A stretch of DNA of 64,000 nucleotides from a phage: the NCBI GenBank assembly GCA_018175075.1, contig GCA_018175075.1_4100.1; one strand, written 5' to 3'. Below are positions 23,089-36,200 of the stretch, in pieces. Under the pieces are notes generated by a model, which did no database searches, was not told the DNA's origin, and saw only the letters and a list, made by a program, of their open reading frames with translations. The position numbers and the translations under genes were made by a program. Within the stretch, counting starts at the first letter, position 1. Each line of letters starts with the position of its first letter.

Positions 23089-23147
23089 ATGTAAATCGTT
23101 ATTATATTTAGGACAAAAAAATGCCAGTACAAAATACTGGCTTTATT
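23089..23147 (-). promoter_or_regulatory. array cassette: terminator hairpin, -10 TATAAT, SD
   Basis: minus strand GCCAGTA..TACTGGC + T-run, TATAAT, GGAGGA. Confidence 0.5.
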
Positions 23148-24353
23148 TTATATACCACGACTGGGTATTTTATATAATTGAAATTTAGTGTAATAATCAG
23201 AAACTGTTGTACCTGTCGCTTGTGGGATATAGCCACTCAAATACACATCCCCTTGATTATCCATATACACATTTGTACATTCACTTGGACAGAATAACTC
23301 GATGCTGCCAACTTTAGGTGCATCAACTGGAACTACAAATGTAGTACTTGATGTTGTATTACCGCGACCGAGCCTACCATATGTGTTTATACCACACATA
23401 TAAAGTGAATTGTTAGTTTTAACCGTAAGACCACCATATGTTAATGAATTTGATTTCATTATCATATCATCTGATATTGGTAGAGTGGAGATTGTAGATA
23501 ATACTGTCCCTGATGAAGCGGCTGAACCATTACCCAAGTTACCTTCCGATTGAATCCCACTTGCACGAACTGTATATGTATTATTCGTGTTGTGTTTAGA
23601 TACAACCCATGATGCACTCCCACCAAGTTCATAATGTATAACAGTATTGTTGGCTAATGCACCCATTTGTGTCCATACTCTAATGTTAGTTTCACCATTA
23701 CTTATACCAAGTGAACCCCATGTGTTTTGACCAGTTACCCAAAGTGTTTTATCAATTTTCTGCACAATCACTGCACTTGAACCTGTTTTTACACTATCCA
23801 CATTCGTATTAATTGAAGTAAATGTTGATAATCTTGTGGTTGTGTTATTACCAAAATATCCCTGTGTATTTGCCCCCATTCCATATAGCGTACCATTTTG
23901 AAGTAAAACAAAAATACCCTCCCCTACAATTTGAATGTCCTTAATTTGCGACAATTGTGTTGCATTGAATACTGATGTAAAATATGAAGTACAATCAGTA
24001 TAAGTACTGACAGTACTTAATCCTGCACCAATAGCTCTACCTACGCCACTGTAATAAAATTTATTATCTTCGGTTTGGATTAAATTAAAAGAACCTTGGG
24101 CTGTTCTAAAACGTTTTACATTTTGGTATATTAAAGTCCACTCTTTTACTTTCGCATTAGGTACACCATTTCCGAATCCATAGTTTTGTGAACTAGTTCC
24201 ACCTATACCCATTAAGTCTCCATTTTTATATAATAGTAAGAGTGCTGTTGCTGGAATAACTGACGCACTATAACCATTGTAAATAAAGATTTCTTTCACT
24301 TCAGGAACTTTCATTTTATTTGCGTATTTTATCATCCTTGGAAAAGGTAACAT
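23148..24353 (-). CDS. RCC1-like beta-propeller repeat protein G2 (tail-fibre/RBP-like paralog)
   Basis: 401 aa; N-terminus MLPFPRMIKYAN; reiterated Gly-rich motifs every ~50 aa. Confidence 0.75.
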   Translation of the reverse strand: MLPFPRMIKYANKMKVPEVKEIFIYNGYSASVIPATALLLLYKNGDLMGIGGTSSQNYGFGNGVPNAKVKEWTLIYQNVKRFRTAQGSFNLIQTEDNKFYYSGVGRAIGAGLSTVSTYTDCTSYFTSVFNATQLSQIKDIQIVGEGIFVLLQNGTLYGMGANTQGYFGNNTTTRLSTFTSINTNVDSVKTGSSAVIVQKIDKTLWVTGQNTWGSLGISNGETNIRVWTQMGALANNTVIHYELGGSASWVVSKHNTNNTYTVRASGIQSEGNLGNGSAASSGTVLSTISTLPISDDMIMKSNSLTYGGLTVKTNNSLYMCGINTYGRLGRGNTTSSTTFVVPVDAPKVGSIELFCPSECTNVYMDNQGDVYLSGYIPQATGTTVSDYYTKFQLYKIPSRGI

Positions 24354-24424
24354 AAAATCCTCCTTTATTCATTATACTATATTTAATCAAAAAGAAAAGC
24401 CAGTGTTAAGTACTGGCATAAAAT
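24354..24424 (-). promoter_or_regulatory. array cassette: terminator hairpin, -10, SD
   Basis: GCCAGT..ACTGGC hairpin + T-run, TATAAT, AAAGGAGG. Confidence 0.5.
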
Positions 24425-25594
24425 CTAAGCAGAAGGCATATTCTTCATCTTAATAAATGAAAATTGTGTACCAGTATTTGTGGTTTGATCAGTAAAATAT
24501 GAATTACTCCCAGCCCAGTACAATTCATTATTGACTATACAATATATAACAGAACTCGAACTCTGTGAATACACACGACTTATATTTGATTGTTCTACTC
24601 CAGTACTGAACTGAACTACCCCCAACTGTGAACTTGGTATTACATTAGTTGGTCTACCTAAACCGTTAACACCCGCTCCACCACCACATGTATATACTCC
24701 AGTACTATCAGTTGATATATTAACATAACCATTTCCGGCATTTTCAAATAGTATTTCACTGGGAACAACACCAAATCCTGTAAGATCTATTTTCCTGAAT
24801 GTAGTGTAAACAGTAGAACCACCAACACCTCTTCCACCATAATCATTAGAACCAGCCATATAGATACTATATCCAGAACTTCCTAAACATAATAACTGTA
24901 CGTTGTCATATAAAATTTGCATAGATATAACGTTATCAGGAATACTCAATACCGTAAAAGTAGTTAAAGAAGAACTTCCAATATTACTACCAACCGATGT
25001 TCCACATCTGTAGTACTTACCGCCTTTTATATAATGGAACGATGAACCGCCTAACTTATGTGCTCCTATTTCACTTACCCCAGTATCTATAAGAATGGGA
25101 GATACAACTTTGTTATTAACACCTAACTCAGATCTACTGTTCATACCGAACCCATATAAACGACCATCTAACATCAATATTAGTGTACTACCTGACGTAC
25201 CTGCTGACGTAAATTCTATATTCTTTATTTGCGACACGTCAATACCTACAAATAATGAAGTTACTTCAGTCCAGTTAACATATGAACCACTAGCCCCAAA
25301 ATATCCACCCATGTATAGTCCGGCACAATATAACTTATTATCAACCGTCTTTATTAATGTACCGGATACACACGCCCAAAAATCATCAACTTCATAGGGT
25401 ACATGTACCCAACCACCTAATACATCACTATCATTCCCTGTTCCTAATTTGTAGTTCGATCCAGAACCACGCATATACATATTCCCTGTACTATAAAGTA
25501 ATCCGACATGTAATTGACTACCATCCAATTTCTTTATTTCGGGAAGAGTTGGTTTAATATTTCCGTACTTTAACATTCTTCCAAAAGGTAACAT
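24425..25594 (-). CDS. RCC1-like beta-propeller repeat protein G3
   Basis: starts MLPFGRMLKYGNI at ATG after AAAGGAGG; track extension MPVLC.. reads through the cassette. Confidence 0.75.
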   Translation of the reverse strand: MLPFGRMLKYGNIKPTLPEIKKLDGSQLHVGLLYSTGNMYMRGSGSNYKLGTGNDSDVLGGWVHVPYEVDDFWACVSGTLIKTVDNKLYCAGLYMGGYFGASGSYVNWTEVTSLFVGIDVSQIKNIEFTSAGTSGSTLILMLDGRLYGFGMNSRSELGVNNKVVSPILIDTGVSEIGAHKLGGSSFHYIKGGKYYRCGTSVGSNIGSSSLTTFTVLSIPDNVISMQILYDNVQLLCLGSSGYSIYMAGSNDYGGRGVGGSTVYTTFRKIDLTGFGVVPSEILFENAGNGYVNISTDSTGVYTCGGGAGVNGLGRPTNVIPSSQLGVVQFSTGVEQSNISRVYSQSSSSVIYCIVNNELYWAGSNSYFTDQTTNTGTQFSFIKMKNMPSA

Positions 25595-34859: not shown

Positions 34860-34931
34860 ATTTCCCTCCTTTATTCATTATATTATATTTAATCAAAAAT
34901 AAAAGCCAGTACTTGAGTACTGGCATATCAA
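34860..34931 (-). promoter_or_regulatory. array cassette: terminator hairpin, -10, SD
   Basis: hairpin 34905-34924. Confidence 0.5.
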
Positions 34932-36098
34932 TTACGAAAAACGTGGATCATCAAGAACAAACACGGTACTACTTGGACCACCTTGTGTGGTGACAGCACT
35001 AGTACTGTAAAGAAAGTTACCATCTGTCATATAAGTTCTACGATTCGTACAAATAACTCTTACTTTATTCATATCGATATCAGGATTAGGTAATGGACAT
35101 GAAGTATACACTGATACATCAGTACTTGTTCCTATTCCCAGCGTACCTTCATTTGTGGTTGAACCGCTATTCAACCCACTAGCATATATACCACTGCTTG
35201 TAATAACAAAAGTGGCGTAGAATGGAGAACCTTCACCTATATTTAATTTAGTTCCAGGTGGTTGTCTTGCCGCAGCAACCGCACCATATGCTTTCCCACC
35301 AGATGTGGCAAGATTACCAAGAGCACCATACTGTTGTTGTCCACCATTATACACTGTGTTAGTGCCATCACTGTTAGTGTGGATACCAATAGAATTATAG
35401 TTACTGTTGCTATATACTAAAGCGGCATTAGAAGTAACTGTATTTCGTGTATATACTTTATATTGTTGGGTAAAATTACCACTAGTGGACGTACCCTGTA
35501 CAGTTCCAGTGTAGTATATATATCCGTCTGTACCAATGAATGAGTGCATAACACTACCTGCAAAAATTTTTTCTGGAGTAACACCTGACGGTATTGTTGA
35601 TTGTACAAATCTACCCACTACATTTGTTGTTGTATTATTTCCCAATTGACCGGAGTCACCATAACCACTTGACCATATGGTATTGTTCTCAAGAAGAACA
35701 CTAATTGATAATCTTGATAAAGCTATTTCTTTAACATCACTTTCTAATGTATCAAAAAATGAAGTACAATTTGTCCAAGTGTTCACTACGCTAGAACTAA
35801 CACCAATTTGTTTATTATCACCAGAACTATAATAATTCCCATCATATGTTTGTATAAGTATAACAGAACCACCAACCCATACTTTATCAACTGAACCAAA
35901 CGTTCTTGTCCATGTGGTAACTATATCCCCGCTATTATTACCCAATCCAAAGCAACCACTACTATCTACGCCTCGTACATATAAATCTCCTGAAGTCATC
36001 AGAACTGCACAGAATGATTGTGCACCTTTAACATCTTTAATTGGCTCTGGTTCAGGTGCAACATTTCCATAATCAAACATTCTAACAAAAGGTAACAT
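34932..36098 (-). CDS. RCC1-like beta-propeller repeat protein G12 (first gene of array)
   Basis: MLPFVRMFDYGNVAPEPEP; motif GQLGNN. Confidence 0.75.
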   Translation of the reverse strand: MLPFVRMFDYGNVAPEPEPIKDVKGAQSFCAVLMTSGDLYVRGVDSSGCFGLGNNSGDIVTTWTRTFGSVDKVWVGGSVILIQTYDGNYYSSGDNKQIGVSSSVVNTWTNCTSFFDTLESDVKEIALSRLSISVLLENNTIWSSGYGDSGQLGNNTTTNVVGRFVQSTIPSGVTPEKIFAGSVMHSFIGTDGYIYYTGTVQGTSTSGNFTQQYKVYTRNTVTSNAALVYSNSNYNSIGIHTNSDGTNTVYNGGQQQYGALGNLATSGGKAYGAVAAARQPPGTKLNIGEGSPFYATFVITSSGIYASGLNSGSTTNEGTLGIGTSTDVSVYTSCPLPNPDIDMNKVRVICTNRRTYMTDGNFLYSTSAVTTQGGPSSTVFVLDDPRFS

Positions 36099-36200
36099 AT
36101 TTCCTCCTTTATTCATTATATCATATTTACCCCATAAACAAAACCCTTGACAACCTTCCAGTACTGGTGTACTATAGAAGGAATATAAGGAGAACTACAC
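36099..36200. promoter_or_regulatory. divergent promoter region
   Basis: minus side TATAAT + AAAGGAGG for G12; plus side TTGACA 36147-36152 /17/ TACTAT 36170-36175 ahead of family S. Confidence 0.45.

Follow-up and report, generated by a model that had tools for sequence, protein, structure and literature searches.

In the hyperplastic regions of T4-type phages, a composite element of ~100 bp, the promoter-early stem-loop (PeSL), joins a stem-loop terminator, a promoter and a Shine-Dalgarno sequence (SD) (PMC2839356; PMC4122927). The internal protein (Ip) loci of T-even phages are polymorphic loci that encode unrelated proteins with only a short, conserved N-terminal leader in common, which directs them into the virion, the gene set varying among close relatives (PMC3012670; PMC12373910). 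Here we describe a locus with features of both in a 64,000-nt stretch of phage DNA (GenBank assembly GCA_018175075.1, contig GCA_018175075.1_4100.1; "the window" below is the whole of this stretch). It is an array of 12 tandem genes on the minus strand, between 36098 and 21924, and most of its junctions carry a shared block, or module, made up of a hairpin, a T-run, a promoter-like element, an SD and the first codons of the next gene, which encode a common N-terminal tag. The genes belong to the same family, and the array to the same kind, as the "DNA condensation/RCC1" arrays on which Rak2-like jumbo phages spend 10-20 kb; several of the gene products have been found in virions by mass spectrometry. 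Our best explanation, to which we give a probability of about 0.7, is that the 12 genes act as interchangeable cassettes, each encoding a virion-associated protein, with crossover at the shared composite block.

PeSL-like modular shuffling is the nearest known analogue of this block. As with PeSLs, a composite of stem-loop, promoter-like element and SD is repeated between variable genes (the window has seven full copies, and across the 11 phages compared below it stands at 84 of 127 junctions), the motif delimits the indels and replacements that distinguish close relatives, and each shuffled gene would retain its own expression signals. The PeSL promoter, however, is a consensus sigma-70 early promoter with an AT-rich upstream element, whereas the block has no usable -35 and a TAAATA core of probably late type. 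PeSLs also flank unrelated early ORFans over several regions, whereas the block is private to one array of virion-protein paralogues, and its homology, unlike that of PeSLs, runs ~40 bp into coding sequence. The locus would therefore extend the PeSL principle, regulatory repeats as recombination joints, beyond T4-type early regions to a late-type promoter and to a joint that reaches into coding sequence. The locus does not match an integron array: no recombinase is annotated in or next to the 11 arrays, and most cassettes have a promoter-like element of their own.

Tandem arrays of these genes have been noted in Rak2-like phages, in the papers on phAPEC6 (PMC7247149), CBB (PMC5259590) and Munch (PMC8273493), and are usually described as tandem duplications (PMC5646251; PMC8273493). 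The papers on phAPEC6, CBB and Munch give copy number or a guessed DNA-condensation role and leave module, tag and shuffling undescribed. The report on fEgEco12 (PMC13070987) yielded no match for promoter, paralog or tandem and does not mention the module, and those on G17 (PMC6563267) and Sharanji (PMC11895373) mention neither the RCC1 genes nor the module. In the literature that we searched, neither the junction module nor the tag nor any shuffling of cassettes is described.

By Megablast, the window groups with the Asteriusvirus jumbo coliphages of ~350 kb (121Q, PBECO4, G17, phAPEC6, UB and others). Its left flank (1-21000) is found at 97-98% identity, with ~90% coverage in one place, in many Asteriusvirus relatives, whereas the best single place in any record covers 25-35% of the array region and is split into several pieces. 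The array is therefore a hypervariable island within a conserved genome.

A preliminary description of the window had listed eight intergenic segments as sharing one module. We reverse-complemented these segments and aligned them by eye; read on the minus strand, each fills precisely the gap from a stop codon to the ATG that follows. Seven (24354-24424, 25595-25672, 29157-29226, 29965-30037, 31229-31299, 32470-32538 and 34860-34931) have the full layout, in short a GCCAGTAC-loop-GTACTGGC hairpin, T-run, TTAAATATAGTATAAT, GGAGG, ATG and tag, and in full GCCAGTAC-(3-4 nt)-GTACTGGC, T-run, TT(G)(T)ATTAAATATAGTATAATGAATAA(A)GGAGG, 3-5 nt, then ATGTTACCTTTTG.AAGAATG... The eighth, 23089-23147, turned out to be a diverged copy, in which the hairpin and the TAAATA core are kept, the spacer and ribosome-binding site (RBS) differ, and the tag has diverged (MLPFGRIITSS); the start codon that follows it is the ATG at 23076 and not at 23088. 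The length given for the DNA shared at the 5' end of the genes, ~110 bp, was borne out, with ~65-70 bp intergenic (hairpin to ATG) and ~40 bp coding. The 24-mer ATATAGTATAATGAATAAAGGAGG (up to three mismatches) has seven matches in the window, all within the array, where 0.00 are expected from 100 shuffles. Eleven occurrences of ATGTTACCTTTT were found, every one at the start of an array gene, and the 12th gene, the one with its ATG at 23076, begins ATGCTACCCTTT. Upstream of the first array gene, at 36099-36129, is a ninth, partial module, which has the promoter-like element and the RBS but lacks the hairpin. At three junctions (33649-33659, 27973-27983 and 26783-26794) that had been said to lack the module and to look operonic, the module is indeed absent; the stop codon abuts or overlaps a GGAGG 4-5 nt before the ATG, an overlap of stop codon and SD that is consistent with an operon. 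The array and its junctions, from the first gene to the last, are as follows.

21924-36145, minus strand: whole array, 12 tandem cassettes and their junctions, a hypervariable island between conserved flanks.
36099-36129, minus strand: partial module GTAAATATGATATAATGAATAAAGGAGGAAAT, hairpin absent; it faces a divergent plus-strand TTGACA-17-TACTAT site at 36147-36175.
34821-34924, minus strand: full module; hairpin 34905-34924, T-run, TAAATA 34886-34891, SD 34865-34869, ATG 34859, tag codons to 34821.
33610-33659, minus strand: RBS-only junction; TAG stop overlaps GGAGG, ATG 33648; only RBS and tag codons in common with the other junctions.
32431-32532, minus strand: full module; hairpin 32514-32532 (-14.9 kcal/mol, z -4.5), TAAATA 32494-32499, TATAAT 32485-32490, SD 32474-32478, ATG 32469, tag.
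31190-31293, minus strand: full module; hairpin 31275-31293, TAAATA 31255-31260, SD 31235-31239, ATG 31228, tag.
29926-30030, minus strand: full module preceding the Gly-rich cassette; hairpin 30012-30030, TAAATA 29991-29996, SD 29970-29974, ATG 29964, tag.
29118-29219, minus strand: full module; hairpin 29201-29219 (-15.2 kcal/mol), TAAATA 29182-29187, SD 29161-29165, ATG 29156, tag.
27934-27983, minus strand: RBS-only junction; stop TAG, GGAGGGAAT, ATG 27972.
26744-26794, minus strand: RBS-only junction; TAA, GGAGGAATTT, ATG 26782.
25556-25658, minus strand: full module; hairpin 25640-25658, TAAATA 25620-25625, SD 25599-25603, ATG 25594, tag.
24315-24417, minus strand: full module with weakened hairpin 24399-24417 (GCCAGTACTTAACACTGGC, -9 kcal/mol, z -2.0), TAAATA 24380-24385, SD 24359-24363, ATG 24353, tag MLPFPRMIKYAN.
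23038-23141, minus strand: diverged module before the last cassette; hairpin 23123-23141, CCTAAATATAAT, different spacer, SD 23082-23086, ATG 23076, tag MLPFGRIITSS.

The complete genome of a relative, EC22.5-2 (351,992 bp), was assembled for a genome-wide check of where these elements occur. The hairpin, the AAATATAGTATAAT element and the tag (M[LIV]PF.R...[YF][AG]N) were found only at 7.9-24.6 kb, inside the array; the junction block is private to the array, and we rejected the idea that the module is a general promoter/terminator of the phage. An Rfam scan of 21000-40000 of the window (E up to 1) returned three sub-threshold chance matches only and no known RNA family at the junctions. The layout of hairpin, T-run, TAAATA, SD and tag recurs in Salmonella phage SE_PL, Erwinia phage Hallingskeid and Cronobacter phage GAP32.

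We compared the array with those of ten relatives (11 arrays in all), whose flanks are 87-98% identical, and clustered gene bodies into cassette types, requiring 85% identity or more across 70% or more of the length. Each array holds 8-17 tagged genes, and the bodies fall into 38 types, which each phage combines and orders in its own way. The order is W C A P B D G E M F N H in the window, I O A J B D X K G E M H in 121Q, R A L B D S G Z E F N H in UB and C A J I B T K L N H in PBECO4. Five types (I, L, O, F and J) shift position between phages, and the Gly-rich cassette D (29227-29964) is present in seven of the 11 arrays, each time directly after cassette B. The cassettes of the window are listed here in order of transcription.

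34932-36098, minus strand: cassette W, RCC1-like propeller, 388 aa; present in none of the other ten arrays.
33657-34859, minus strand: cassette C, RCC1-like propeller, 400 aa; predicted structure with a mean confidence of 91.4, tag residues 1-13 disordered.
32539-33648, minus strand: cassette A, 369 aa; 98.2% identity to the WPEC3 copy, ~85% to copies in phages with near-identical flanks.
31300-32469, minus strand: cassette P, 389 aa, RCC1-like.
30038-31228, minus strand: cassette B, 396 aa, RCC1-like; nearest copy in phAPEC6 (96.9%).
29227-29964, minus strand: cassette D, 245 aa, Gly-rich non-propeller body with the same tag; phrog_4474, no Pfam family.
27981-29156, minus strand: cassette G, 391 aa, RCC1-like; 99.8% identity to the G17 copy, 80-85% to others.
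26791-27972, minus strand: cassette E; 269-aa open reading frame (ORF; 27163-27972) that continues in another frame after a 1-nt insertion.
25673-26782, minus strand: cassette M, 369 aa, RCC1-like.
24425-25594, minus strand: cassette F, 389 aa, RCC1-like.
23148-24353, minus strand: cassette N, 401 aa, RCC1-like.
21924-23076, minus strand: cassette H, terminal; split by a frameshift into a 74-aa ORF and a 298-aa ORF (21924-22820).

Single cassettes differ in their nearest relative, which is WPEC3 for A, G17 for G and phAPEC6 for B. Cassette A is discordant with the flanks, its closest copy (98.2%) being in WPEC3, which has an 87% flank, whereas the copies in phages with 97-98% flanks are at ~85%. 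Similarity blocks (high-scoring segment pairs, HSPs) between arrays start and stop in the shared junction, without private flanks; 320 of 452 5' ends fall at -90 to 0 from the ATG and 316 of 427 3' ends at +10 to +60, although HSP ends necessarily run through any conserved junction and therefore locate cassette edges, not crossovers. We scanned linkage in every pair of junctions taken from two different phages. The 12 nt that precede the hairpin go with the upstream cassette (match rate 0.52 vs 0.02), the sequence from codon 13 onward goes with the downstream cassette (0.29-0.54 vs 0.03-0.05), and the loop, the T-run and the spacer between SD and ATG go with neither. The presence of hairpin and promoter is constant for a given upstream type (A with them in 11 of 11 cases, C and E without them in 7 of 7 each), and one cassette type can follow either a full module or an RBS-only junction. 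A linkage switch inside the block is the pattern expected of crossovers within the block, and it supports the view that they probably occurred there. The preliminary description had called for a comparison with related genomes for gene swaps bounded by the module, and among the arrays of the ten relatives such swaps were found; its proposal that the 5' DNA common to the genes lets their variable bodies be exchanged by homology is supported by the mosaics of 38 types, by boundaries in the module or tag and by the discordant nearest relatives.

In the mechanism that we favor, the block would consist, in order, of a terminator hairpin and U-run closing the upstream gene, a variant of a T4-type late promoter, a strong SD and the tag codons. 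A cassette would then comprise tag codons, body and stop codon, usually followed by terminator and late promoter, and then the RBS of the next gene. Since every junction shares at least 55 bp (RBS and tag), and most share ~110 bp, homologous recombination could place a crossover at any of them. In the course of replication or of co-infection, it could delete, insert, replace or move whole cassettes, each recombinant product would keep promoter, RBS and tag intact, and frequent exchange would in turn homogenize the block.

Homogenization of this kind may have left its mark on the codons of the tag, M(L/I)PF.R..YGN, which takes up the first 12-13 codons and is common to otherwise unrelated bodies. 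M1, P3, F4, R6, Y10 and N12 are invariant, whereas the bodies of the paralogues are 18-24% identical. Codon choice is nearly frozen, at synonymous codons that are rare: L2 is TTA in 120 of 120 copies (34% genome-wide), P3 is CCT in 120 of 120 (32%), R6 is AGA in 113 of 119 (22%), K9 is AAG in 69 of 73 (23%) and G11 is GGG in 81 of 111 (8%). The homologous tag of Salmonella phage SE_PL (MIPF.R..YGN) has mixed Pro and Phe codons. Evidently the protein can do with varied codons; the freeze therefore suggests concerted evolution or a further constraint at the nucleotide level. SE_PL (L019) has at least 14 tagged genes and Hallingskeid (L020) at least nine, with proportionally more RBS-only junctions than in Asteriusvirus and with mixed synonymous tag codons; homogenization of the block seems weaker in these two phages.

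Residues 1-13 of cassette C have a confidence (predicted local distance difference test, pLDDT) below 50 in the AlphaFold 2 model, on a propeller of pLDDT 91. The Gly-rich, non-propeller cassette D carries the same tag, which is therefore a fold-independent N-terminal peptide. On two grounds, the disorder in the model of C and the presence of the tag on D, we rejected the tag as a closing "velcro" strand of the propeller, and a secretion signal was rejected from the sequence because a hydrophobic core is absent. Eight phAPEC6 paralogues (PMC7247149) and the single homologue of GAP32, gp001 (PMC5259590), have been detected by virion mass spectrometry. The tag may dock or target these proteins to a common site on or in the virion, and the distribution of tags among phages fits lineage-specific docking or targeting peptides.

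GAP32 has only two tagged genes, 002 and 001 (L022:1523-2155 and L022:2501-3658), both preceded by (G)GTAAATACT... The product of the second, gp001, is an RCC1 protein; gp002, which begins MLPFARIFRYGD, is not, and it is annotated as a "virion structural protein", so that the tag marks non-propeller virion proteins in another genus too. The unrelated A7_1 (Vequintavirinae, 145 kb) has two tandem RCC1-like homologues (L021:2507-3706 and L021:3720-4856), ~36% identical to cassette C, which share another conserved N-terminus, MLEMLNL; this hints at an analogous, perhaps lineage-specific tag.

Phages with multiple tailspikes or fibers (the CBA120/G7C type, and RaK2 and phiKp24 with branched fibers) combine a conserved N-terminal adaptor with variable receptor-binding domains. 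Like these, the array encodes paralogous virion proteins with a common N-terminal part, divergent distal parts and horizontal exchange. Unlike their adaptors, which are folded and tens to hundreds of residues long, the array tag is a 12-residue peptide predicted to be disordered, and receptor binding by the propellers is hypothetical. Taken together, shared tag, late signals and cassette exchange yield a testable hypothesis, namely that these genes supply a fast-evolving modular set of virion proteins, and such sets are usually tied to host interaction. A more far-reaching version, which we put forward as tentative and on the improbable side, is a plug-and-play diversification of the virion, in which the disordered 12-residue tag would dock any product to one common socket, co-infecting Rak2-like phages would trade ready-to-express cassettes through homologous recombination at the array-private block, and each phage would display 8-17 different propeller (adhesin) heads that shape host range or environmental adhesion. 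If true, phage surface proteins would have an analogue of integrons or shufflons, one based on recombination. Should the tag be sufficient for incorporation, it could also serve to load foreign proteins onto or into these large phages.

The tag may instead be a capsid-targeting leader like that of the T-even internal proteins, with the propellers held inside the head and ejected (in an anti-defense, inner-body or DNA-condensation role) and not on the surface. We find this doubtful. The logic is alike, unrelated proteins at a variable hotspot having only an N-terminal leader in common (PMC3012670; PMC12373910), and the array likewise joins divergent proteins, one of them of a different fold, to a short shared leader. 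The authors of the phAPEC6 study suggested an inner-body role, and the peptide counts in phAPEC6 mass spectrometry are low. CBB is "hairy" and yet has no RCC1 homologue, which argues that RCC1 proteins are not tail whiskers and weakened that candidate role (PMC5259590). The tag sequence, however, is unrelated to the T4 leader and is without a cleavage motif of the (L/I)xE type; a search for such a prohead-protease site found no conserved Glu after the tag in 120 copies. Array bodies, unlike the T-even internal proteins, are mostly of one fold (the RCC1 propeller), and a putative terminator separates most of the genes. Head packaging is a property of the Ip proteins, whereas the array proteins are known as virion-associated by mass spectrometry only. 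Propellers of 40 kDa would moreover need unfolding to traverse the tail, and RCC1 propellers form the C-terminal part of annotated tail-fiber proteins in Littlefix and in PollyC, where they accompany a T7 tail-fiber N-terminal domain.

The promoter element of the module is probably a variant of a late promoter; its core, TAAATA, is ~31 nt from the ATG, and it may initiate late transcription. TAAATA is kept in SE_PL, Hallingskeid and GAP32, whereas TATAAT is lost in Hallingskeid and GAP32. In the EC22.5-2 genome, ATAAATA lies 35-57 nt upstream of the genes for tail sheath, major head protein, tail fiber, baseplate wedge and other structural proteins (genes presumed to be late), often just after a terminator-like T-run, and the tail-fiber upstream sequence ATAAATATAGTATA agrees with the module sequence TTAAATATAGTATA at 13 of 14 positions. 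For Rak2-like phages a T4-like late motif has been proposed, and a gp55-like sigma factor is encoded (PMC5259590); the RNA-seq paper on PA5oct gives generic sigma-70 motifs only. The module's (A/G)TTAAATA matches the T4 late consensus (a TATAAATA-like -10 with no -35) at 6 of 8 positions and the lineage's ATAAATA at 6 of 7.

A sigma-70 pair is probably not involved. We rejected the reading TTGATT...TATAAT because TTGATT is only 8 nt from TATAAT, which itself starts 22-23 nt before the ATG, so that transcription would begin on the SD. No -35 was found in the module at 16-18 nt from TATAAT (the best candidates match 2-3 of 6 positions), nor any TG extension. It is nevertheless conceivable, if unlikely, that the module carries a host sigma-70 early promoter as true PeSLs do, with TATAAT as -10 or with CTGGC(T/A)-17-TATAGT, the -35 then lying in the hairpin arm. 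Almost every Asteriusvirus copy has TATAAT as a perfect hexamer, the stem-loop of a PeSL can extend over the -35 (PMC2839356), and a sigma-70 scan of the window did pick out one module, and only one, in which CTGGCA-17-TATAGT at 32518-32490 matches at 9 of 12 positions. Besides the missing -35 and the start on the SD, this explanation has to contend with the failure of Hallingskeid and GAP32 to keep either TATAAT or the spacing from hairpin to box (TAAATA being kept), with products that are virion proteins, and with the resemblance of the motif to the upstream regions of structural genes. A late-type promoter with a TAAATA core fits these observations better.

The block might also be ordinary sequence left by tandem duplication and held by purifying selection, the differences between arrays having arisen by duplication, loss and general recombination elsewhere. 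This is how such arrays are usually described (PMC5646251; PMC8273493). The block holds functional-looking signals, and since the tag protein is kept across genera with different codons, selection alone can maintain the tag. Yet protein-level selection does not need the codon choice at L2 and P3 that is fixed in all 120 copies, and the explanation does not account for cassettes that shift position and have discordant nearest relatives, one of them closest to a phage with an 87% flank, or for similarity boundaries and a switch from upstream to downstream linkage inside the block. We therefore regard it as quite improbable, and continue with exchange at the block.

The hairpins at the junctions have folding energies of -9 to -15 kcal/mol (z -2 to -4.5), a U-rich tail comes after each, and the depositors of G17 independently annotated the same sites as terminators with ARNOLD; all of this is consistent with the terminator reading of the preliminary description. 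The defining features of an intrinsic terminator (a GC-containing hairpin with a U-run directly after it, on the transcribed strand) are present at the sequence level, and the hairpin would terminate transcription. If so, each gene with a full module may be a transcription unit of its own, as had been proposed. The stems are near-invariant within Asteriusvirus, whereas the loops vary; the stems of SE_PL show compensatory changes (GGCTAGTAC/GTACTAGCC and TGACAGTAC/GTACTGTCA), and across genera the AGTAC..GTACT core is kept while the outer pairs covary. Counted over the window, loci L001-L010 and EC22.5-2, the loops occur as reverse-complement pairs: CTCTG 11 and CAGAG 8, CTTTG 7 and CAAAG 3, CTCAAG 8 and CTTGAG 1, CTCAG 4 and CTGAG 1. 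Window examples are CAGAG at 29201-29219 and 30012-30030 and CTTTG at 25640-25658. The pairs indicate that the loop has apparently been inverted repeatedly between the arms of the palindrome. That the palindrome is chiefly a DNA-level recombination or nuclease site (cruciform or hairpin DNA, loosely like an integron attC) and not chiefly a terminator is very improbable: the paired loops (CTCTG/CAGAG, CTTTG/CAAAG and CTCAAG/CTTGAG) suggest an active DNA palindrome, the conserved core with covarying outer pairs also speaks for such a site, and the hairpin goes with the upstream cassette, as part of its 3' end (the junction types of A, C and E given above), but none of the 11 arrays has an annotated integrase or recombinase within it or beside it, hairpin-less junctions rearrange too, the T-run is always on the 3' side of the hairpin on the transcribed strand, and loop inversion can come from template switching in any palindrome.

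Several points, in addition to the limit on HSP ends, weigh against an array of virion-protein cassettes exchanged at an expression block. Initiation and termination at the module are predictions from sequence, the U-tract is interrupted (UUUCUUAUUU), and the TTAAATA of the module differs from ATAAATA at a position conserved in ~30 structural-gene copies. Three overlapping -10-like elements (TAAATA, TATAGT and TATAAT) leave several promoter classes possible. The linkage scan draws on 11 related, non-independent genomes, and much of the block's conservation could come from selection on expression and on the tag and not from recombination.

As to the proteins themselves, 11 of the cassettes encode seven-bladed RCC1-like propellers and one the Gly-rich body. 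Ten intact paralogues match models of the RCC1 repeat and the RCC1-like domain as well as PHROG 4219; PF00415 and PF13540 are above cut-offs in several of them, and PF25390 has E values of 1e-15 to 1e-31, below its gathering score. The AlphaFold model of cassette C (33657-34859) is a confident propeller, with a pLDDT of 91.4 and a predicted template-modeling (TM) score of 0.89. It rests on a word-based homologue search that gave 18 matches, adequate for a structure model and too few for a survey. Foldseek aligned the model to UVR8 (TM score 0.74-0.81), and RCC1 and HERC2 also match; over the three proteins, TM scores are 0.7-0.8.

Cassettes E and H are frameshifted; in E the sequence reads GTAGGGTCAC where GTAGGTCAC would restore ..LYGVGHKIHGQLGNG.. 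Sequencing error was rejected for both, since identical 1-nt insertions are present in independently sequenced relatives, in six for E (all six that carry it) and in five for H. The 269-aa form of E corresponds to phAPEC6 gp007, which was detected in phAPEC6 virions. The frameshifted E and H could be shared pseudogenes, truncated functional products or recoded genes.

Some observations concern the surroundings of the array. In WPEC3 (L008, locus 1172-3024), one tagged RCC1 gene lies past the usual limit of the array, a conserved plus-strand gene homologous to window 21281-21943, and the array boundary is therefore not fixed. The match of vB_EcoM_CRJP21 (306472-329789; H21) to window 1-21000 overlaps three genes annotated as "regulator of chromosome condensation" and one annotated as "putative DNA condensation protein", so RCC1-type genes may have been inserted into the otherwise conserved left flank in CRJP21. 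To the right, at 36200-40000 and extending further, the plus strand carries another tandem array, whose genes, of ~60 aa, recur every ~190 nt (repeat families D4-D7) and whose counterpart is 121Q genes 249-265; it is transcribed divergently from the RCC1 array, from the TTGACA-17-TACTAT site at 36147-36175.

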